This document shows positions 1 to 57,015 of a DNA stretch of 64,000 nucleotides, piece after piece. The DNA comes from an uncultured Lentisphaerales bacterium. GTDB lineage: Bacteria > Verrucomicrobiota > Kiritimatiellia > RFP12 > UBA3636. The DNA lies in assembly GCA_964405775.1 (NCBI GenBank), contig CAYOPG010000001.1, positions 4,276 through 68,275 of the forward strand. The letters run 5' to 3'. Below the pieces are notes generated by a model that saw only the letters and a program-made list of their open reading frames with translations, made no database searches and had not been told where the DNA came from. The first letter of the stretch is position 1. Each line of letters begins with the position of its first letter. A program made the translations under genes and the position numbers.

Positions 1-662
1 CGGCATTTGTGTATCCCACCAGCGATACGATCGGCCATTTGCGTTTTGCTATGTCGCGTGATGTCTGGCGTGACTGCACGATCTCAAGTTTTTTCTTCAG
101 TTCGTTAATGCGGCGGCGTAGGGGTTCGTTTCTGAGTTGCAGGTGGCTTTCGCCCGGACCGCGGACGTTTGCCCTGCCTTTAAACCGCTGTTGCGATTCT
201 GTGACGGGTATTCGCTTGAGCTGAAACTGCAGCTGTGCCAGTTCAACTTGCAGCTTGGCCTCAGACGATCTGGCACGACGCGCGAAAATTTCTAGTATGA
301 TCTCCGTCCGGTCTAGGATGCGCACGCCAAGAGCCTTCCACAGATTGTGGGCTTGGATGGCGCTCAGCTCGTTGTCGAAAACCACCGTGTTGGCTCCGGA
401 GTGGGCAATGATAGCTTCAAGCTCCCGAAGCTTTCCGGCGCCAACCATCGTTCCCCCATCGGGCTTGTCGCGACGCTGTTCCACATGGCAGACTACCTCA
501 AAACCCGCCGTTTCCGCCAGCCTGCCCAATTCAAGTAAAGAATCAGCCGCCTCGTCCCGTTCCATTCGTGAATGGATGACCTGCACCAGTATAGAGCGTT
601 CGACTTCTTTTGTATCGTGTAGAATTGTCAACTTGATCCTGCTTTGCCTCATGGTGGCAATT
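1..662 (-). CDS. hflX: GTPase HflX, N-terminal portion (gene runs off the 5' end of the window)
   Basis: Minus-strand translation from ATG at 662: MRQSRIKLTILHDTKEVERSILVQV...DKPDGGTMVGAGKLRELEAIIAHSGANTVVFDNELSAIQAHNLWKALGVRILDRTEIILEIFARRARSSEAKLQVELAQLQFQLKRIP...RGPGESHLQLRNEPLRRRINELKKKLEIVQSRQ...PIVSLVGYTNA. This matches the HflX N-domain and the start of its G-domain. The listed plus-strand ORFs 255..671 and 347..538 lie antisense to it. Confidence 0.8.
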
Positions 663-798
663 AGGGTTTAAACTGCCGCTGATTGTAAGGCATTAAAGCC
701 GCCGAAGTCAAGCCGCAGAACCTTTACATCTTGCTCGCTGAAGGCGTTTTTGTTAGAATTGCCACAACTTTGACTCTTTTAAAATACACGAGGATGAT

Positions 799-3360
799 GT
801 GATGGAGCGTTTTGTAAACTACACTGTTTTACCCAAAGTGCCTGAGAAGCTTTCTTTTCTGCAGGTTCTTGCCAATAATGTCTGGTGGTCTTGGAACATA
901 GGGGCGTCCGCATTGCTGAGGCGTATTGACCCCCAGCTTTTCCGCAGTTCTGGGTTTAATCCGGTAGTATTGCTTTCGTCAGTAAGTCAGGAGAGGCTCG
1001 AAGAGCTCGCAGGCGACTCGTCTTTCCTTTCTCACATGAAATCTGTGGAGGAGCAGTTTAAGAATGAAGTGCTAAAATCACGCCATTGGAAGAATATATA
1101 CGACCCGCACCGTTGCGTCGCGTATTTCTCCATGGAGTTCGGCCTTCAGGAAAGTATTCACATCTATTCCGGCGGTCTTGGCCTTTTGGCGGGAGACCAT
1201 CTCAAATCCGCGTCGGACCTTGACGTTCCTATTTGTGCTATAGGAATCTTCTACCGCGAGGGATATTTTGAGCAGGATTTGGATCGCAATGGACATCAGA
1301 TCGAATTCTATCCTGAGAACGATGTTCACAAGTTGCCGGTAAACCCGGCATACGATGCCTCAGGTAACCATGTGAAAATATCTGTGCCGCTGGCAGAGGG
1401 TCCCCTAGTCGCCGCAGTATGGCGTCTGGATGTTGGCCGCATACCTCTGTTTTTGCTGGACACGAACCTGAACGAGAACAGGCCCGAATTCCGAGAGATA
1501 TCGGGCCGCCTTTATGGTGGAGACAAACTAAACCGCCTGCGTCAGGAGATATTGCTTGGCATCGGCGGTATGCGCGCCCTCGCGGCAATGGGATACGAAG
1601 TCGCTCTTAGTCACATGAACGAAGGCCATGCCGCATTCCTCGGACTTGAGCGCATTGCAACGTCCATGCGAGGCGGACTTTCTTTTGAAGAGGCGCATGA
1701 GTTCGTGAGGCGTACGAGCGTGTTCACGACTCACACCCCAGTGCCCGCCGGCAACGAGACGTTTGATCTGGGCTTGTTGTATCCGCACCTCAAGGCGATA
1801 GAGGCAGAAGGCGGAGTTGCTGCAAATGTGGCGGTTGCCATGGGTAAGCCGACCGGCGACACAAAGACCAACGAGTTTTCCATGACAATTCTCGGACTGA
1901 ACTGCTCCGAGTATTGCAACGGCGTCTCTCGCCTGCACGGAATAGTCGAGCGCGACATGTGGAAGCACCTCTGGCCAAGCTTCCCAGTGTCTGAAGTTCC
2001 CATCGGGCACATCACCAACGGCGTTCATGTACCGACATGGATTTCATCCGACAATTATAATATTTATGAGAGTGTGTTAGGTCCAGATTGGGACAAGCGT
2101 CTGTTGACTGAAAGTCAGATCAACAAGATCGACCATATTCGAGACGAGGATCTCTGGCGGGTGCACGAGGCGTCGCGGGCTCACTTGATTCGTTCTGCAC
2201 GCGAACACTTGGTGCGCTGCTGCATGAAGCGTAACGAGCCGTTCGAAGTCCTCGCGTCTGTTAGAAACGTCCTCGACAAAGACGCTCTTACAATCGGGTT
2301 CGCGCGTCGTTTTGCGACGTATAAACGCGCTACATTGCTGCTCTCCGATCCCGCCCGCCTAAAGCGCATATTGCTCGACCCCGCACGCCCTGTACAGATA
2401 CTGTTTGCCGGCAAGGCGCACCCGGCGGACTTCGAAGGCAAGCGCTTTATACAGGAGGTAGTGGCTTTTGCCAAAGACCCAGAGGTTAAGGGGAAGATTG
2501 TTTTCCTTGAGAACTACAATATACACATAGCGCGGCGTCTGGTGCGAGGCGTTGACGTCTGGTTGAACACTCCCAGACGCCCGAATGAAGCTTCCGGGAC
2601 TTCCGGGATGAAAGCATGTATAAACGGAGCCCTGCACGTCTCCACGCTTGACGGCTGGTGGCCAGAAGGCTACAGCAAAGACTGCGGCTGGGCTATAGGT
2701 GACATCGAAGAAAAGCAAGACATCGATGCGCAGGATCAATCAGACGCTCAGGCTCTGTACAACTTGCTAGAGTCCGAAATCGTGCCCACTTTCTACGATC
2801 GGCCGTTTGGCGAGATTCCGGTTCGCTGGATCAGCATGATGAAGAATTCAATCAAAATGAGCTTGAACAAGTTCACTAGCAGTAGAATGGTGTCTGAGTA
2901 CAGTGGTCAGGCATACGAGCCTGCGTTCTATGACTTTGATTCCCTTGTTGCCGACGACTTCGCGGTGATCCGGCGCGATGTGGCTAATCAGAAGGACATA
3001 CTGTATAAATGGTCGTCGGTCCGGATTTCGTTCCCGGAAACCAACCGTGACCTTGCAAAGAGCTTCGTTGGAGACGAGTTCGAAGCTACGGTACGAGTCA
3101 AACTCGGGGGAATATCTCCGAAAGACGTCAATGTCGAATTCTTTTCAGGTGTTTTTGATTCGGACTCAAGAGTTCTTTCAGGCACTGGAAACGAGATGGT
3201 ACTGTCTGAAAGTCTTCCAGACGGAGTGTACATTTACAAGCAAAAGGTCAAATGCTCCAAGGTCGGGACATTCGGATATTCAGCTAGAGTTTATCCCAAA
3301 GACAAAACTCTGCGAGATGAAATGCCCGGTTATATAGTATGGAGCTCCAGAAGTATGTGA
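799..3360 (+). CDS. glgP: alpha-glucan (glycogen/maltodextrin) phosphorylase, GT35 family
   Basis: 853 aa. N-terminal WWSWN motif typical of the alpha-glucan phosphorylase subfamily. PLP/phosphorylase core motifs present (EASGTSGMK, GFARRFATYKR). Immediately followed by glgA. Confidence 0.9.
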   Translation: MMERFVNYTVLPKVPEKLSFLQVLANNVWWSWNIGASALLRRIDPQLFRSSGFNPVVLLSSVSQERLEELAGDSSFLSHMKSVEEQFKNEVLKSRHWKNIYDPHRCVAYFSMEFGLQESIHIYSGGLGLLAGDHLKSASDLDVPICAIGIFYREGYFEQDLDRNGHQIEFYPENDVHKLPVNPAYDASGNHVKISVPLAEGPLVAAVWRLDVGRIPLFLLDTNLNENRPEFREISGRLYGGDKLNRLRQEILLGIGGMRALAAMGYEVALSHMNEGHAAFLGLERIATSMRGGLSFEEAHEFVRRTSVFTTHTPVPAGNETFDLGLLYPHLKAIEAEGGVAANVAVAMGKPTGDTKTNEFSMTILGLNCSEYCNGVSRLHGIVERDMWKHLWPSFPVSEVPIGHITNGVHVPTWISSDNYNIYESVLGPDWDKRLLTESQINKIDHIRDEDLWRVHEASRAHLIRSAREHLVRCCMKRNEPFEVLASVRNVLDKDALTIGFARRFATYKRATLLLSDPARLKRILLDPARPVQILFAGKAHPADFEGKRFIQEVVAFAKDPEVKGKIVFLENYNIHIARRLVRGVDVWLNTPRRPNEASGTSGMKACINGALHVSTLDGWWPEGYSKDCGWAIGDIEEKQDIDAQDQSDAQALYNLLESEIVPTFYDRPFGEIPVRWISMMKNSIKMSLNKFTSSRMVSEYSGQAYEPAFYDFDSLVADDFAVIRRDVANQKDILYKWSSVRISFPETNRDLAKSFVGDEFEATVRVKLGGISPKDVNVEFFSGVFDSDSRVLSGTGNEMVLSESLPDGVYIYKQKVKCSKVGTFGYSARVYPKDKTLRDEMPGYIVWSSRSM

Positions 3361-49591: not shown

Positions 49592-50632
49592 CTACAAAAA
49601 GCGTTGAAGGGCAAGCTCGGCGATGTTTATCCTAACCTCCTGTGCCTTGTCGTGGTCGCCTGTGCTGCGGTATGTTAAGACGATCACATATAGTTGCTTC
49701 TCAGGGTCAATCCAAACGGTGTTTCCAGTCCATCCGGTGTGGCTAAGAGTGCGGCTGGAAAGCGAGGGGGCATTGTATCTGGAGTCCACACGCCATCCGA
49801 AAGCGACTGGCGAACGCATGTCAGGACGCGTTCCGAGAAAATCAACAACGTCCTCCGATAGGATGCGCCTTCCATCATATTCGCCTCTTGCCAGCATCAT
49901 TCGGCAGAAAACAGTTATGTCAGCGGCTGTCGAAAAAAGCCCGGCATTCCCTACAGGATGCAGAGCGTTACGTGCGGGAGGATCGCTGGCAATACCGAAT
50001 GTGTCATACTCGGAGTAACGTATCACTCGCGAAGGATCGGGATTTGGAAGCGGCGCCCAGCGCGAGTCTGTCATTCCAAGAGGGCTGAAAATGTTTTCGA
50101 CGCAAATCGAGTTCAGATCCGAGCCTAGAATCCGCTCGGCGATGATCCCAAGCAGGATGTAGTTGCCGCAAGAGTATTCGTACATTTCGCCAACAGGCCG
50201 AATGGGACCGAAATCAAGTATGCGCTCGACAACCTCTCCGACAACGTCGTATGGTTTCTGGTTTGGGAAGCCGGAGATATGGCGAGAGAGGTCGCGGATG
50301 GTAACAGGCTCCCTCAGCTTCCCCCTGTAATCAGGAAGATATTTTGTAAACGGGGCGTCAGGATCCAGAAGGCCGCGCCCCATGCACTGCGCTAGGACCG
50401 TGGTAGTACCAACGACTTTTGTTACGCTTGCCAAATCGAAAATGGCGTTAGCGGGCATCCTCACGGTATGTACGGCATCTATCCATCCGAAAGGTTTTAT
50501 AAAGCTCGTCCCTTCGGACGTACCGACTGCCAGCACACCTCCGGCGTTCCATCCCTCCATGACAGTCCGATCCAAGTATTCATCAAGCGCGCTCTTTCCA
50601 CCACGATTCTCGAGTTCAATAGTTCCCGACAT
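49592..50632 (-). CDS. serine hydrolase, beta-lactamase class C / PBP4-like family
   Basis: SxxK motif SVTK. YSC and HTG motifs (YEYSCGNY, LSHTGWTGN). Start at ATG 50632 with AGGGGG RBS. Confidence 0.8.
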   Translation of the reverse strand: MSGTIELENRGGKSALDEYLDRTVMEGWNAGGVLAVGTSEGTSFIKPFGWIDAVHTVRMPANAIFDLASVTKVVGTTTVLAQCMGRGLLDPDAPFTKYLPDYRGKLREPVTIRDLSRHISGFPNQKPYDVVGEVVERILDFGPIRPVGEMYEYSCGNYILLGIIAERILGSDLNSICVENIFSPLGMTDSRWAPLPNPDPSRVIRYSEYDTFGIASDPPARNALHPVGNAGLFSTAADITVFCRMMLARGEYDGRRILSEDVVDFLGTRPDMRSPVAFGWRVDSRYNAPSLSSRTLSHTGWTGNTVWIDPEKQLYVIVLTYRSTGDHDKAQEVRINIAELALQRFL

Positions 50633-50764
50633 ACAATCCCCCCTGTTATAAAATTTTAACTTTGAGCATAGATGATAAGCTAATAACACCCTCTGGGGAA
50701 GTACAAATAATTGGGATATCCCACTGGGAATTCAGAAACAAACCACTGAACATTCAGACGCATA

Positions 50765-51091
50765 CTATCGCATAGAAAAATAAGCAACAGAAGCACGGCC
50801 ATCAACTAAAAGCTCCACACCCCATTTTATTGAAAAGAGCGTGCCTTCGTAGGTATAAGGTTTACCCGGTAATTGGAACTCAAACCGTTCTTCATCTTCG
50901 GTGCTTGTGGAAGGTATCTCTCGTGAATCGGCGACATAAGCATCGTCGACCCCACCACCGACCACCTGCCAGAAAAGCCGGATTTCAACTTCACGCGGCG
51001 GCTCGACTCTTTTCCAAGCGACTCGACCAGACACACTGCCACCTGGTGCGCATGTGGCACTGTCTAAAACCACTTCGTACACTGTGTTCAT
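50765..51091 (-). CDS. small hypothetical beta-sandwich protein, paralogous to the C-terminal domain of the upstream DUF3592 membrane protein
   Basis: 108 aa. FEFQLPGKPYTYEGTLFSIKWGVELLV resembles LEVKLPPDAMHSFESAHASIQWRLKVVG in the upstream gene. Its ATG overlaps the upstream stop (ATGA). Confidence 0.5.
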   Translation of the reverse strand: MNTVYEVVLDSATCAPGGSVSGRVAWKRVEPPREVEIRLFWQVVGGGVDDAYVADSREIPSTSTEDEERFEFQLPGKPYTYEGTLFSIKWGVELLVDGRASVAYFSMR

Positions 51092-52803
51092 AACCAGTCT
51101 CCTTTGGACGGATGAACGCTAAGCAAATATTCGTCTTTTATGCCCGGCCAAAAGGGGATCTGCCCCACCACTTTGAGGCGCCATTGTATCGACGCGTGAG
51201 CGCTTTCAAACGAATGCATAGCATCGGGAGGAAGTTTAACCTCCAGTTCGCCGCGCGTCATGTCGTGTGGGTTAGACGTCTCTACCAGCGTCGCAGTAAA
51301 AAATTCGTGCTCTTCCGAGCTGTCCAAATCTCCATCACTCACAGATATTGTCTCCACTCCGTGCAGGGTGACCTTCAGAGAAATGACACGGTGCATAGAG
51401 CCAGTTGCACGGAAACGCAACCTGATTGGCTTATCCAGACTAAAGTTGCCGCTGTCGGGGATTACTTCGATTTTGGGGTTTAAAATACGGAGAAACTCCT
51501 TCAACAGTACACCAATAGCAACAAGGCCAACGACGACAAATGGAATAAGAAATATAATTAACACCCACTCGGGGCGCCCTTCTTTTATACTAGACCAGGC
51601 TTTGAACACGAAAATGGATAAAATGCCATTCCATAAAAACGCGAATATCATTGCTCCGAAAATTTGCCGAGTGGTAGTTTTCTTTATCGGTGGCACTGGA
51701 CGGCCATTCCTCCCACTTTTATTTTTTCTGCTCCTGTCGAATGCGGCAGCAGGCGTATTCCTCATCATCAAACCAGCTATGAATATAGCGGAGCCTACCC
51801 CGATAAAGATAAATGGGAAAAGAATGGAAATAATAGCGCTCCACTCCGCGTCACGGTTTATTACGCTCCGCTCGGGATTTTGAGGGTCAACGAAAATCTT
51901 GATTTCACGTCCAACTGGATGCGCCCTAACGACCTCAGCTTTCCCGTCGTAGCCGCTGCTGGAAACTTTGAAGAAAACATATTTGTCACCCTCGCAGGTT
52001 TTACCATTGAAATCATACGAATAGGCTATGTAGGGATAATAAGTAGTGCTGTCGTTGTCACTGTTTTCCCTAACAGCGCTTGCCGTTACGACGGCCGGGG
52101 TTTCGACCCAAGACGCTGAAGCCCACCATTCTTGCAACGGAGGTAGAGACTGCGATAACACGCCAATGCCGGCGGCAACAAAAACGCCCCCGAAAATGAT
52201 CATTACCACCTTACCCAGACGCTTTGAAGAGATGTCTTTTTGAGTGGGCGACTCGAAACCAACAGCCCGCTTTTTTCTTGAACGCGACACCCAGGGGCCA
52301 AACGCGACACCAAGCCCTATGACAACAAACGGCACCATAAAGAGTAGCTCGAGCCAGGGTAAAGAGCCAGAGCCTCGGGTCAACACAGCCATTGACGGAT
52401 TCTGCGGGCTGACGTAACAAGTCGTTGCTTTCCCTTCTGGATAGCTCTCGAGCAACTTATTCTTTTCAGCAACAGAATCGACACTGTACGAGCGCAAATT
52501 TCGGCTGTATTGATTGCCCGTGTAATTGCGCCCGCCAAACTGGTAACTGAAATTAGCAGAAAATGAATATTCTCCATCTCTGGAAGTCTCTACGCGAGAT
52601 TTTTCAATCGTGCAGGGAGTCGGCACCCATTGAAGGATTTCTCTGTCAGCCAGATGGTCTTTAACCACGAATGAGCCCATGACAACTGCAAACGAAGCGA
52701 AAATGATTCCGAACACTGTTGTTCCCAGCAAAGAGCCAATTGACGGCACTGAGTTTGAGTTTTTCCGCCTATTTCTAGAGATATGTACTCTTCTGCGCCT
52801 CAT
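51088..52803 (-). CDS. polytopic membrane protein with two DUF3592-like modules and a C-terminal beta-sandwich domain
   Basis: 571 aa, ~6 TM. Two TM-flanked domains match the DUF3592 pattern (e.g. PAVVTASAVRENSDNDSTTYYPYIAYSYDFNGKTCEGDKYVFFKVSSSGYDGKAEVVRAHPVGREIKIFVDPQNPERSVI). Confidence 0.65.
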   Translation of the reverse strand: MRRRRVHISRNRRKNSNSVPSIGSLLGTTVFGIIFASFAVVMGSFVVKDHLADREILQWVPTPCTIEKSRVETSRDGEYSFSANFSYQFGGRNYTGNQYSRNLRSYSVDSVAEKNKLLESYPEGKATTCYVSPQNPSMAVLTRGSGSLPWLELLFMVPFVVIGLGVAFGPWVSRSRKKRAVGFESPTQKDISSKRLGKVVMIIFGGVFVAAGIGVLSQSLPPLQEWWASASWVETPAVVTASAVRENSDNDSTTYYPYIAYSYDFNGKTCEGDKYVFFKVSSSGYDGKAEVVRAHPVGREIKIFVDPQNPERSVINRDAEWSAIISILFPFIFIGVGSAIFIAGLMMRNTPAAAFDRSRKNKSGRNGRPVPPIKKTTTRQIFGAMIFAFLWNGILSIFVFKAWSSIKEGRPEWVLIIFLIPFVVVGLVAIGVLLKEFLRILNPKIEVIPDSGNFSLDKPIRLRFRATGSMHRVISLKVTLHGVETISVSDGDLDSSEEHEFFTATLVETSNPHDMTRGELEVKLPPDAMHSFESAHASIQWRLKVVGQIPFWPGIKDEYLLSVHPSKGDWL

Positions 52804-53112
52804 GCTATTACTTTATGCGAGTTAAAAGTTTCGGCTATACCCGTTCTTCCATGCTAAAACGTATCATTTTGTACTACTTTTCGCAAGATAAACCCGTTCC
52901 GCGCGACAGCGAAAGAAAAGTTTTTTTTGCGTCACATGAACCAAATGAGCTCTTAAGCCGTTTTATGATTTGACGGCCTCATTTGTGCCGTTGATGCGTG
53001 GCGGCGTGTCGCGCATGGATATTATCGGTAAGAATGGCGGTTTTGTTTGAATATATCTGGTTTTGTTTCCGCAACGGCGCATAGCACCGCAAGTAAGGCT
53101 TTTTGGAATTTG

Positions 53113-53718
53113 ATGGAATACGGAGGGCCAGTGATGTGGCCACTGCTCATGTGTTCAGTATTGGTTGTAGCAGTGGTTCTGGAGCGGGCATGGGTTTTTA
53201 TCGCGTTCACTTTGGCAGAGTGGCGTTCTCGGAGTCGCATAGAAGCGTTTCATAAAGCGCTCAACTGTGGTGACTTGAAAGCTGCGATTGAAATAGGCAA
53301 GAACTCCGGACCGATCGGAAACTTTTTATCGCAGGGGGTTGAGCTCAGGCAAAACGGAATCCATGATGGACTTGAGGAAAGCGGGCAGCAGCTCCTGGAT
53401 CGACTAGGCAGAGGGCTTACAGTACTTGACACTATCGTTACGCTAGCCCCCATGCTTGGTATACTCGGCACAGTGACTGGCATAATTGATTCATTCCAAC
53501 TTATGGGCGCGGCGAAAGGAGTGCAAGGCATTGAGGCCGTGTCTTCAGGAATCGCGGAAGCCCTTGTAACAACTGCGGCGGGCTTGGTGGTTTCGATGAT
53601 CGCGCTCGTGCCCTTTAACATCTTCAAGACGCTCCATACGCGATGGTTGCGCAAGCTGGAGCGGGCTGCACGCTGTTGCGAGGCGGCTTGCATGAAGGAG
53701 GACGGTGTTGAAGCTTAA
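53113..53718 (+). CDS. exbB: MotA/TolQ/ExbB proton-channel family
   Basis: 3 TM. C-terminal IAEALVTTAAGLVVSMIALVPFNIF signature. ATG at 53113; the ORF-track TTG start at 53047 is less likely. Confidence 0.85.
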   Translation: MEYGGPVMWPLLMCSVLVVAVVLERAWVFIAFTLAEWRSRSRIEAFHKALNCGDLKAAIEIGKNSGPIGNFLSQGVELRQNGIHDGLEESGQQLLDRLGRGLTVLDTIVTLAPMLGILGTVTGIIDSFQLMGAAKGVQGIEAVSSGIAEALVTTAAGLVVSMIALVPFNIFKTLHTRWLRKLERAARCCEAACMKEDGVEA

Positions 53719-54109
53719 ATCGAAGTACGAAGGCGAATCAGCTAGAATGGAAATGACGCCGCTGATGGACGTAGTATTCCTGTTGCTCGTTTTTTTCGTA
53801 TATGCCATAGTAGTTACACCCTCACAACAAGCAATTGGCATCTCACTGCCTGAAGCCAAAGCTGAAAGCTCTGGATGCGAGTACATTGAATTTTTAATGA
53901 CCGCTGATGGCACCATATTGTTTGACGAGAGGGAAATAGGTGAAGAAGAAATTACCACGCTCGTTGCGCTGCATGCTCCCGGGACTCCGGTTCTAATCAG
54001 TGCCGACGAAACCGTGGCAATCGGACGTGGTCTTGCACTTCTCGGCGAAATGCGTGAAGCCGGAATAACCGAAGTGGCTTTTCAAACTAAACCCCAGACT
54101 GAAAAATAG
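53705..54109 (+). CDS. exbD: ExbD/TolR biopolymer transport protein
   Basis: MTPLMDVVFLLLVFF TM, periplasmic domain. Overlaps exbB. Confidence 0.85.
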   Translation: MLKLKSKYEGESARMEMTPLMDVVFLLLVFFVYAIVVTPSQQAIGISLPEAKAESSGCEYIEFLMTADGTILFDEREIGEEEITTLVALHAPGTPVLISADETVAIGRGLALLGEMREAGITEVAFQTKPQTEK

Positions 54110-54120
54110 GGTGGCATTAC

Positions 54121-54870
54121 ATGATGTTCGATGGCTCCAGCCCGACGACATGCAAATTCGCGGCCTTGCTCTTAGCGGGCGGAATACATTTGCTAGCATT
54201 CAGTCTGGCAGATTTTGATATTTCCATGCCGGCAATCCCCCAACCCACCGTGACTCGTATGATTCTGCTGCCACCTGCACCTGTGCCTGCACCACCTGCA
54301 GTTGAGCCTGCCAAGATTGAATCACCCCCCGCCCCCATTACCCCTGAGCCACAAACTCTTCTTCAGGAGGAGCCGTCGCCAGTAGAATTGCCGGACGAAG
54401 GTTCAGAGGATGAATCAGAACCGATACAAGAAACCGCTGAGGAACAACGACCAGAAGAGATAGTATCTGAGGAATCTCCACCGGCACCGCAGGAAGTTGT
54501 TCAGGAACCAGCAACCATACCGGTATCGCCCGAAGTCTCAGAATCGGCTCAGCCCGTAGCCATTGAAGCACCAGAAGACTCCGACGGGAAATTTGATGTC
54601 GCGCCTGCTGTTTATAGCAGGATCAAACCTGAGTATCCGCTTTCGGCAAGACAAGCAAAAGTCGAAGGCGATGTGGGTTGCGAGCTGTTGGTTTCAAAGC
54701 GTGGCAGAGTCCTTGAAGCAGCTGTCGTATCAAGTAGCGGACACAAAGAAATCGACGATGCTGCGGTAAAAGCCCTTCGTGCAGCGCGTTTTTCACCGGC
54801 TACAAAACGCGGAAGACCTGTCGAAGCGCGTGTCCGTCTTGTGGTTGAATTCAACCTTTCCGCAAACTGA
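54121..54870 (+). CDS. tonB: energy transducer TonB
   Basis: N-terminal TM. Pro-rich spacer (PPAPVPAPPAVEPA...). C-terminal TonB domain (YPLSARQAKVEGDVGCELLVSKRGRV...RFSPATKRGRPVEARV). Confidence 0.8.
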   Translation: MMFDGSSPTTCKFAALLLAGGIHLLAFSLADFDISMPAIPQPTVTRMILLPPAPVPAPPAVEPAKIESPPAPITPEPQTLLQEEPSPVELPDEGSEDESEPIQETAEEQRPEEIVSEESPPAPQEVVQEPATIPVSPEVSESAQPVAIEAPEDSDGKFDVAPAVYSRIKPEYPLSARQAKVEGDVGCELLVSKRGRVLEAAVVSSSGHKEIDDAAVKALRAARFSPATKRGRPVEARVRLVVEFNLSAN

Positions 54871-54891
54871 ACACGCGTCCTAGATAAATGT

Positions 54892-57015
54892 TTAGAAACG
54901 GCCTCGCAACGCTATTTCCACTGTTCGAGGTTCTCCGGTAAAGCACTGGTAGTAGTGGCGGTTCGATTCGAAGTATTCTTCGTTGAAAGCGTTTTTAAGC
55001 GCAAGTTGCAGTGTCCAGTCTCCCGACAAACCAAACTTTGACATGGGCGCTTGCACAGAGAAATCAAACACGTGCACGTCATCGAAGTAGTAGTCGGAAC
55101 TGACATATTCTCCACGCATGGTACCATCGTAGCCATGCTTGAAGCGATACCCAGCCCCAAGCGTCAGTCCATTCAGCAAGCCGCCTGGGATACTATATGT
55201 TGTCTGCAAAGATATTGAGTGCGGCGGGTAAGGGTCGAAAGCCTTTCCGCCGGACACAGGTTTGGCGTCGTTGTAGGAATAACCGAATGACAACGACCAG
55301 TTTTCAGAAACATTTCCAGATAGCGTCGCTTCCACTCCGCGGTTGTCGGAGCGCCCTTCAGTTACGTAATAACCGGTCGAGTCGTCATAGCTTGGTGTAT
55401 CGTTCTGCTTGATTTCATAGACAGTCAGCGTCAGCCATAAAGTTTCCACCGGACTGATACGAACGCCGGTTTCGTACTGCTCCGCATTCCACGATGAAGT
55501 CAATTCCTCCGTTTTACTTTTCATGTGCCCGAAATTTGGCGACTCTGTGCGTGAGTAATTCGCAAAAAAGGCAAGCCACTGGGCTGGCAGTATGGAGACG
55601 CCCACGCGCGGACTCACGGCATCTCCGGAATTGCCCAGGTTGCTCTCATGTTCATCGTAGCGAACTCCTCCAATCAGACGTAGAATCCCAACCTCCACAT
55701 AATCTTGCGCAAGAATGCCAAAACGATCGAGTTCAGAGTCTATGAAATCGCCTTTCGGTAGCGGGCTGAATAAGTTTGGCGCTAGCAGCACGGCATTGGC
55801 ACTGCGTGAATGCGTATTCATCCGCAAGGCATCGACTTGGAAAAGCGTAGTGTGAGACGCGCCAAAAGCGTCATAACGAGCTATTGAACGACCATACAAA
55901 TTGTAGTTTTCGCTGGTTGTATCCCTCCAGTTCAGATCGAACTCCTTGACGGATGGCACGCCAGACTGATTCGCATATGTCGATGAGCCTATGTGATCAA
56001 ACTCCATGTCGGAACCGGCAAACCCTGCGCCGCCGCGAAACTGCCAAACGTCCGTTGCATCCCACTCGATGTATCCTTGCAAACTATAGCCTGTGTACTC
56101 GTCACGTAGATCATGGTCTCCAGCAACATAGCTGTCCCAATTGTAAGGCGGCAGCGGTTTGCCTCGAAACGACGGCACCCCTTGATATCCTGGCGCATCG
56201 GTAAACTGGAGCGTGGAGCTAAGGCTTATGCGCAGATCGTCCGAGGGCTCCCAGTATAGCGATGGAGCTGCAAAGACGGTATGTGCCCAGTCGTGTCCCG
56301 AAGGCAGCCAAAACGGTTTTGAAAGACTGATTCCAAGAGGAATCCGAACTCCTAGCGATTCTGAACCAGACGCGTGTACATCTGCGTTCATCCGATATTG
56401 CTGTGACTCGCTCCCAACAGAGGTCCTGATGTCAACATCAGTAAACTCTTCCCCAAGTCTAGGTTGCTTCTGAACAAGGCTTATTGCGCCACCGGCGCCA
56501 TAAGGCCCCAATGTGGAAGTCTGCCCGCCTTGAACCGCCCCGATTGGCCCCTTAGAGATTTCGACGCGCTCCAACATGCCGGGATCCAAAAACATACCCA
56601 TGGATCCTGTCATTGGAAGCGTCCCATCAAGCGAAGGAGTGGAGCCGGCCATGCCGCGTATGGAGTACTGTCCGGAAGTGCGATCCATCATTGACTTCCC
56701 GCCACCAGACAACCCTGGCTGAAAAAACAATAATTCATGCAGATCAACAGGATTTTGCTCCCTAATGAAGTCGGTCGTGATAACATCAACGCTTACCGGA
56801 AATTCCGTCGGCGGAACATTGAAATAAGTTGAGGATGACACTTCGTCCACATGGTATTTTGATATTGGAGAGGCCTCCACATAAATGGTTCCCAGATCGT
56901 GCACCTCGTTGGTTGAAGCAATCCCGCAAAGCGGAAATGCAAGCATAAGCGGGGTTATGAGTTTTAATTGTATTTTCATATAGTCGTTGTTGCTGTTGGT
57001 ATTTACTGAACTCAT
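54892..57015 (-). CDS. TonB-dependent outer-membrane receptor
   Basis: Signal peptide (MKIQLKLITPLMLAFPLCGIAS if the start is 56979). Plug domain. 22-strand barrel. Terminal ...ALRGRF. Confidence 0.85.
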   Translation of the reverse strand: MSSVNTNSNNDYMKIQLKLITPLMLAFPLCGIASTNEVHDLGTIYVEASPISKYHVDEVSSSTYFNVPPTEFPVSVDVITTDFIREQNPVDLHELLFFQPGLSGGGKSMMDRTSGQYSIRGMAGSTPSLDGTLPMTGSMGMFLDPGMLERVEISKGPIGAVQGGQTSTLGPYGAGGAISLVQKQPRLGEEFTDVDIRTSVGSESQQYRMNADVHASGSESLGVRIPLGISLSKPFWLPSGHDWAHTVFAAPSLYWEPSDDLRISLSSTLQFTDAPGYQGVPSFRGKPLPPYNWDSYVAGDHDLRDEYTGYSLQGYIEWDATDVWQFRGGAGFAGSDMEFDHIGSSTYANQSGVPSVKEFDLNWRDTTSENYNLYGRSIARYDAFGASHTTLFQVDALRMNTHSRSANAVLLAPNLFSPLPKGDFIDSELDRFGILAQDYVEVGILRLIGGVRYDEHESNLGNSGDAVSPRVGVSILPAQWLAFFANYSRTESPNFGHMKSKTEELTSSWNAEQYETGVRISPVETLWLTLTVYEIKQNDTPSYDDSTGYYVTEGRSDNRGVEATLSGNVSENWSLSFGYSYNDAKPVSGGKAFDPYPPHSISLQTTYSIPGGLLNGLTLGAGYRFKHGYDGTMRGEYVSSDYYFDDVHVFDFSVQAPMSKFGLSGDWTLQLALKNAFNEEYFESNRHYYQCFTGEPRTVEIALRGRF

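Follow-up and report, generated by a model that had tools for sequence, protein, structure and literature searches.

Probable arrestin-like lobes, one membrane-tethered and one free, encoded by adjacent genes across bacterial phyla

Introduction

Arrestin-fold proteins are central adaptors of eukaryotic membrane receptors and transporters, and to our knowledge their only described prokaryotic relative is Spo0M, which is soluble and poorly understood. Here we describe two overlapping genes of an uncultured Lentisphaerales bacterium (GenBank assembly GCA_964405775.1, contig CAYOPG010000001.1, positions 4,276 to 68,275; this whole 64-kb stretch is referred to below as the window). One gene encodes a protein with six transmembrane (TM) segments and a C-terminal domain that is probably an arrestin-like lobe, and the other encodes a small protein that resembles a free lobe of the same kind. 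The first of these arrestin-like lobes belongs to the chain of a multi-pass membrane protein, and the second is free but dedicated to it. The genes represent an unnamed, widespread arrestin-fold family in a new membrane-tethered, split architecture, which by Pfam thresholds lies outside Arrestin_N, Spo0M and Vps26.

Spo0M (PF07070; structure 5CL2) represents the arrestin clan in bacteria and archaea. It is a single protein of ~250 amino acids (aa) with an extra C-terminal domain, and it shows neither a TM fusion nor a pair of tethered and free lobes. Spo0M brought bacteria into the arrestin clan, in work that also speculated on partnering with membrane receptors and described the protein in Firmicutes, Actinobacteria, Cyanobacteria, Proteobacteria and haloarchaea (PMC2515105). 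Both lobes reported here match the Spo0M structure in Foldseek searches, but they measure 108 and ~135 aa, one of them is membrane-tethered, neither matches PF07070, and the profile match to 5CL2 reaches an E-value of only 1.4. Their phyletic range, mainly Planctomycetota, Verrucomicrobiota and Acidobacteriota, is also unlike that of Spo0M.

The alpha-arrestins (ARRDC3, TXNIP, ARRD-6) and Vps26 carry their N and C lobes on one soluble chain that binds membrane cargo non-covalently, whereas in the window one lobe is built covalently into the membrane protein and the second is a polypeptide of its own, a single-chain lobe-linker-lobe arrangement being found only in relatives. Canonical arrestins are further characterized by a polar core, a finger loop and an affinity for phosphorylated receptors or cargo. 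Alpha-arrestins recruit ubiquitin ligases through PPxY tails; no PPxY motif was seen on reading both window translations and, unlike in alpha-arrestins, no ubiquitin machinery is involved here. Our literature search on DUF3592, bacterial or prokaryotic arrestins, Spo0M and STAND returned neither a membrane-tethered bacterial arrestin-like lobe nor an operon of this kind.

The N-terminal part of the membrane protein belongs to a different family, PF12158 (DUF3592), whose typical members are 150-240 aa long and consist of one module and nothing else. Single-module proteins such as ML2271 of Mycobacterium leprae have the same unit of TM helix, ~85-aa beta-rich domain and TM helix, of which the window protein carries two; ML2271 is a predicted cofactor of the mannosyltransferase MptB (bioRxiv 10.64898/2026.07.15.738315). 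The modules described here are instead N-terminal accessories to a TM hairpin and an arrestin-like lobe, and relatives with one or none occur. No functional study of DUF3592 was found in the literature search, and the operon provides a first contextual clue for some DUF3592 proteins.

Results

Fold of the two lobes

A preliminary description of this DNA had proposed a two-gene operon with ORFs (open reading frames) of 571 and 108 aa, the second starting in an ATGA. Both are present on the minus strand, and the ATG of the small gene overlaps the TGA of the big gene by 4 nucleotides (nt), ATGA. The features that matter for the lobes are listed here, all coordinates being positions within the window.

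51088..52803, minus strand: big gene, 571 aa plus stop; six-TM protein carrying the DUF3592 module twice and ending in an arrestin-like lobe (ORF list, Pfam, 49 homologues)
51091..51495, minus strand: C-terminal lobe, residues 437-571 of the big protein; predicted cytoplasmic, arrestin-N-like, beginning ~10 residues past TM6 at the conserved N442-P443
50765..51091, minus strand: small gene, 108 aa plus stop; free arrestin-N-like lobe (ORF list, AlphaFold2, Foldseek, dN/dS, family size)
51099..51103, minus strand: AGGAG ribosome-binding site, 7 nt upstream of the small-gene ATG and within the end of the big gene (direct sequence reading)

The same description had suggested that an arrestin- or Spo0M-like module is present in both a tethered and a free form, and independent AlphaFold2 models bear this out. 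The model built from the small-family alignment had seven strands, a predicted local distance difference test score (pLDDT) of 94.9 and a predicted template-modelling score (pTM) of 0.86, and that built from an alignment of the C-terminal domain (residues 437-571) had seven strands in the same order (pLDDT 93.0, pTM 0.84). When the models were compared with the Protein Data Bank (PDB) using Foldseek, the N-lobe of ARRDC3 (4R7X) was matched at E-values of 2.2e-7 by the small protein and 2.8e-8 by the C-terminal lobe, and Spo0M (5CL2) at 4.7e-6 and 3.0e-6, respectively. Next in both lists came the TXNIP N-domain, Vps26, ARRD-6 and beta-arrestins, and for the small protein the query template-modelling score (TMq) of the Vps26 matches was as high as 0.78. 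Structure-match scores were 12.3 for ARRD-6, 12.0 for the ARRDC3 N-lobe, 11.3 for Vps26, 11.1 for Rgp1, 10.5 for TXNIP, 9.7 for Spo0M and 9.5 for S-arrestin, and in three structure searches the top matches were solely from the arrestin clan. Judged by these models, each lobe appears to be a seven-stranded beta-sandwich whose nearest structures are arrestin-clan lobes, as in an arrestin-N-like member of that clan.

Profile searches pointed in the same direction. Only ten matches were obtained when the small-family profile was compared with 177,635 PDB sequences, and these included the TXNIP N-domain (E-value 0.005), Vps26B (0.007) and Spo0M (1.4). Sub-threshold matches to Pfam Arrestin_N were seen in 12 of 72 small-family members (best E-value 9e-4) and in 4 of 23 C-terminal lobes (best 0.0067). 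As a statement of structural identity alone, we consider it very probable that both lobes are arrestin-like.

Relation between the two lobes

The two lobes share a motif, which reads LP-x5-SFES-x3-SIQW in the C-terminal lobe and LP-x4-TYEG-x3-SIKW in the free one; the preliminary description had recognized the motif in both proteins but had its spacing slightly off. Its P, S and W are invariant or nearly so in a joint alignment of both families. Because the motif, generalized as LP..SF..G..I.W, aligned with that of the TXNIP N-domain, we identify it as the arrestin-N signature.

Paralogy of the lobes had also been proposed from the motif, and here a qualified picture emerged, since the relationship went unseen by BLASTP (C-terminal domain against small protein, E-value 0.33, not significant) or by HMM (hidden Markov model)-to-sequence searches and was detected remotely, by profile-profile alignment and fold. 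In hhalign, the two lobes aligned end to end and in register over 110 columns, with an E-value of 6e-4 and a score of 27.7. This score exceeded those of all 100 column shuffles (mean 12.8, maximum 20.1) and all 100 shuffles of eight-column blocks (mean 17.4, maximum 26.5). Based on the profile-profile score, the identical strand order and the identical best structural matches, we accept the two lobes as remote homologues within the arrestin-N-like superfamily; these data are not evidence of a recent duplication.

The small gene and its neighbor

An initial homologue search with the small protein yielded two close relatives only. However, three relatives with 30-51% identity, all with different flanks, had a small ORF behind the big gene, either overlapping it by 4 nt or separated from it by 4 nt, and a profile of such ORFs retrieved 368 proteins. 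In an exhaustive library of representatives at 50% identity, the small family comprised 2308 clusters at E ≤ 1e-3, a number that fell to 1116 when the cutoff was set at E ≤ 1e-10; these ~2300 sequence clusters span many phyla, with no Pfam model for either lobe. Comparison of the small gene with its 70%-identical orthologue in locus L093 gave a dN of 0.175, a dS of 1.41 and a dN/dS of ~0.12, indicating that the gene is under purifying selection.

To define the genomic context, we scanned one genome per GTDB species and obtained 299 loci, of which the best 80 were scanned with HMMs built in this analysis. A big-family gene was adjacent to the small gene on the same strand in 77 of the 80 loci, and in the remaining three no more than 320 nt lie between the small gene and the end of the contig. 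The order was big-then-small at 69 loci, often with the same 4-nt overlap, and small-then-big at six (Thermoanaerobaculia and Holophagales); one locus had a 425-nt intergenic gap and in one the genes were fused. These loci come from Planctomycetota, Verrucomicrobiota, Acidobacteriota, Hydrogenedentota, Nitrospirota, Desulfobacterota, Bdellovibrionota, Omnitrophota, Sumerlaeota and others, the first two phyla being especially well represented in the genome sample. The pair is found side by side in every evaluable case, across bacterial phyla. The existence of homologues, the big-family neighbor in 77 of 80 genomes and the substitution pattern all uphold the small ORF as a real gene.

Fusion of the two genes was also recurrent. 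For example, the 710-aa protein P0015 is a fusion of the big and small proteins, and such fusions made up 13 of the top 150 representative clusters, in the order C-terminal lobe, linker of 20-30 aa, small lobe. Some of these could be frameshift artefacts at the ATGA junction; because they fall into thirteen separate 50%-identity clusters, the sequences argue for recurrent fusion being real.

Two further observations concern individual loci. Two tandem big-family genes precede one small-lobe gene in a Hydrogenedentota and a Phycisphaerae metagenome-assembled genome (MAG) (L029, 1861-4004, and L079, 749-3978). Cultured carriers are Desulfatibacillum alkenivorans DSM 16219 (L013/L014) and Planctomycetales bacterium ZRK34 (L075); in D. 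alkenivorans the same locus start lies at two contig ends, only one of which runs on into a gene for a nucleoside triphosphatase (NTPase), described below.

Membrane architecture of the big protein

A Kyte-Doolittle hydropathy scan placed six TM segments in the big protein (residues 29-47, 151-169, 199-217, 324-342, 381-399 and 414-432), the number that had been proposed. Pfam PF12158 matched the whole protein with 99.9 bits (E-value 1.3e-28) in two stretches, and each stretch alone exceeded the gathering score of 25.3, so that the proposed double occurrence of DUF3592 was also recovered. Each module is bracketed by TM helices, module 1 by TM1 and TM2 and module 2 by TM3 and TM4. The TM5-TM6 region, the C-terminal 135 residues and the small protein had no match in Pfam or NCBIfam. 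The features upstream of the C-terminal lobe are as follows.

52663..52719, minus strand: TM1, residues 29-47, preceded by a K/R-rich, predicted cytoplasmic N-terminus (hydropathy scan)
52369..52620, minus strand: DUF3592 module 1, residues 62-145, predicted periplasmic, with conserved Cys64 and Cys129 (PF12158, 53.5 bits alone)
52297..52353, minus strand: TM2, residues 151-169 (hydropathy scan)
52153..52209, minus strand: TM3, residues 199-217, following a K/R-rich, predicted cytoplasmic loop (hydropathy scan)
51850..52101, minus strand: DUF3592 module 2, residues 235-318, likewise predicted periplasmic; its DDSTTY and SSSGYxGK loops are conserved (PF12158, 61.9 bits alone)
51778..51834, minus strand: TM4, residues 324-342 (hydropathy scan)
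51508..51663, minus strand: TM5-TM6 hairpin, residues 381-432, the constant membrane core of the family (hydropathy scan, invariant columns)

The distribution of charge suggests an orientation. The N-terminal 25 residues contain 8 K/R and 0 D/E, the loop at 170-198 contains 9 K/R and 2 D/E, and the loop at 347-380 contains 10 K/R, and charge is balanced in both DUF3592 segments. Because the N-terminus and loops are K/R-rich, the positive-inside rule predicts that the N-terminus of the big protein is inside, with the DUF3592 modules in the periplasm and the C-terminal domain in the cytoplasm. C64 and C129 of module 1 are at least 90% conserved among homologues, as would suit a disulfide in the periplasm. 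Neither a hydrophobic segment nor a signal peptide is present in the small protein, which would therefore share the cytoplasm with the C-terminal domain.

Forty-nine homologues of the big protein were found by word index, mostly of ~570 aa and with the same architecture from end to end; named sources among them are MAGs of Kiritimatiellia, Sedimentisphaerales, Luteolibacter and Thermoanaerobaculia. Invariant residues are T254, Y255, S281, S282, G284 and K288 in module 2 and W391-N392, F422 and G426 in the TM5-TM6 hairpin. Across the 80 loci, two DUF3592 modules were present in ~37 big genes, one in 29 and none in seven complete genes, in which either a short loop between two TM helices took the place of the module or a TM hairpin alone preceded the lobe. 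Examples of big-family genes without DUF3592 are L010, L012, L022, L070, L071 and L073 (four TM segments and a short loop, or the hairpin only). The constant core consists of the TM5-TM6 hairpin, the N442-P443 junction and the arrestin-like lobe. Because relatives without any module retain the hairpin and lobe, we conclude that the DUF3592 modules are accessory to the family and not part of its core. The big-family profile (positions 117-204) matched bovine rhodopsin (residues 179-267) and also BK-channel beta subunits in the PDB at an E-value of ~0.03, which was not significant and was dismissed as a chance effect of TM-helix similarity or composition.

A third gene in most relatives

All-against-all clustering of the neighboring ORFs of the 80 loci revealed a gene for a ~190-aa P-loop NTPase in 67 of them, located next to and downstream of the small gene or, at loci with inverted order, of the big gene (examples are L008, 6104-6682; L031, 4358-4942; and L075, 4351-4923; with 64 more loci). 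No fourth conserved neighbor was evident, the next-largest cluster being present in at most 6 of the 80 loci. The NTPase has a Walker A motif GPHGxGKTT, a Walker B motif LLDGAEQL and an invariant N-terminal NPF. Its Pfam matches were sub-threshold only (nSTAND_NTPase5, AAA_22 and NACHT), and comparison with the PDB gave generic P-loop matches, of which the sole long alignment was to an RFC-like AAA+ protein. In cluster P0307 the small lobe is fused to the NTPase. We suggest that this compact three-gene module of membrane protein, lobe and NTPase merits a family description. The window carries a two-gene version of the module, because the NTPase is absent from its 64 kb.

Discussion

Proposed mode of action

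Our preferred reading, which we put forward tentatively, is that of a split arrestin-like module, tethered to the membrane through one of its two gene products and serving as an adaptor or in signalling. The free lobe would dock with its tethered counterpart at the inner membrane face and so complete a two-lobed arrestin-like adaptor. The TM5-TM6 hairpin would control the state of this adaptor, together with the periplasmic DUF3592 modules of those proteins that have them, as possible envelope sensors or anchors. The assembled pair would then recruit or regulate a cytoplasmic partner. In the ~85% of relatives that encode it, this partner would probably be the downstream P-loop NTPase, and in the lineage of the window it may be encoded elsewhere or have been dispensed with.

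Several observations weigh against such an adaptor. Both lobes resemble arrestin N-lobes and not a pair of N and C lobes, and the linkers of the natural fusions, at 20-30 aa, exceed the arrestin hinge in length. The sequence relationship is faint: no Pfam model of clan CL0135 (Arrestin_N PF00339, Spo0M PF07070, Vps26) reached threshold and the two window sequences had no match at all to these models, HMM-to-sequence searches did not cross-detect the two lobes, and the probability assigned by hhalign to their alignment was only 28%. In addition, an HMM search found no match to the NTPase at E ≤ 10 in the whole window or in the loci of its closest relatives (L001-L007). Finally, the small protein of the window ends directly past strand 7 and is without the C-terminal tail (R.E..hSP.G.Ei.L) of nearly all relatives. 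The presence of this tail did not correlate with that of the NTPase; nearly all relatives have the tail, with or without an NTPase gene.

A bolder form of the proposal is a prokaryotic "receptor-arrestin" unit, in which a polytopic protein with one covalent lobe would recruit the second lobe as a subunit, and the resulting two-lobed clamp would couple periplasmic status to a small P-loop NTPase switch. We regard this form as rather doubtful. If it were true, arrestin-fold adaptors would have been at work on the cytoplasmic face of bacterial multi-pass membrane proteins before eukaryotes, and the arrestin clan would have two bacterial branches, Spo0M and the present module. The module makes the question of a bacterial arrestin at a membrane protein directly testable, and cultured carriers exist.

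Alternative explanations

One alternative is that the lobes do not pair and that the free one, as a soluble regulator or competitor, titrates or gates the output of the membrane protein, binding either the cytoplasmic ligand of the tethered lobe or the K/R-rich loops of the TM protein. Two N-lobe-like domains with the same LP..SF..I.W surface motif could recognize the same partner, translational coupling would fix the stoichiometry of the lobes, and P0307 joins the free lobe to the NTPase and not to the big protein. The strict co-occurrence of the genes in both orders is compatible with a competitor as well as with a partner. However, the thirteen independent fusions place the free lobe right after the tethered lobe, an arrangement that fits cooperation better, and we consider a competitor unlikely.

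It is also conceivable that both lobes are generic immunoglobulin-like sandwiches that converged on this shape, the small protein being a structural subunit or an assembly chaperone without adaptor function. We think this quite improbable given that the top matches in three structure searches were exclusively from the arrestin clan, that the profiles independently selected TXNIP, Vps26B and Spo0M from among the 177,635 PDB sequences, and that the LP..SF..G..I.W motif aligns with that of the TXNIP N-domain.

The sub-threshold resemblance of the NTPase to nSTAND_NTPase5, NACHT and AAA_22 raises a further possibility, that of a conflict or defence system of the abortive-infection or toxin-like kind, in which a STAND- or AAA-like NTPase would sense invasion, the TM hairpin protein would be a membrane-disrupting effector scaffolded by the lobes, and the window would hold a decayed two-gene remnant. 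Such a role would suit the differing genomic neighborhoods of the module across lineages and the AbiEii and PIN/Phd genes that adjoin a Luteolibacter homologue. Neither protein, however, had a match in PADLOC-DB 2.0 at E ≤ 1, nor was there a match in PHROGs; the neighbors are housekeeping genes, no neighbor family other than the NTPase occurred in more than 6 of the 80 loci, and the small gene is under purifying selection. The idea of a remnant also sits poorly with a two-gene form that is intact across relatives of 50-70% identity, and a defence role is, in our view, very unlikely.

That the 108-aa ORF is spurious and only the 571-aa gene real, as its shortness, the lack of a Pfam or NCBIfam match and the two close matches of the first search might suggest, can be set aside with near certainty in view of its 368 and then 2308 relatives, its adjacency to a big-family gene in 77 of 80 loci, its dN/dS of ~0.12, the pLDDT of 94.9 and the AGGAG upstream.

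Gene start and flanking genes

Public gene calls for a near-identical protein (99% identity) begin at V30, giving 542 aa and clipping the K/R-rich N-terminus. Conservation of the first 29 residues (window 52717..52803) in P0002, a protein of 68% identity, makes the ATG at 52803 a likelier start of the big gene than V30.

The flanks of the operon, described beforehand as unrelated genes, proved to be so: by Pfam, a beta-lactamase-family hydrolase, EF-P and an FHA/sigma-54 activator lie on one side and a divergent ExbB-ExbD-TonB cluster on the other. The window has an intact hydrolase gene (49592..50689, minus strand). Its counterpart in a 99.87%-identical metagenomic contig (L090, 3460-4496) is split into 78 and 263 aa by a 1-nt indel at the SVTK active-site motif, either a strain-level pseudogene or an assembly error. 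Upstream of the operon, positions 53047..57015 hold the divergent ExbB-ExbD-TonB genes and a convergent ORF of 707 aa. This upstream side, and not the downstream side, is kept in the 70%-identity relative L093, and by synteny with that locus (1-3063) the 707-aa ORF is a TonB-dependent receptor.

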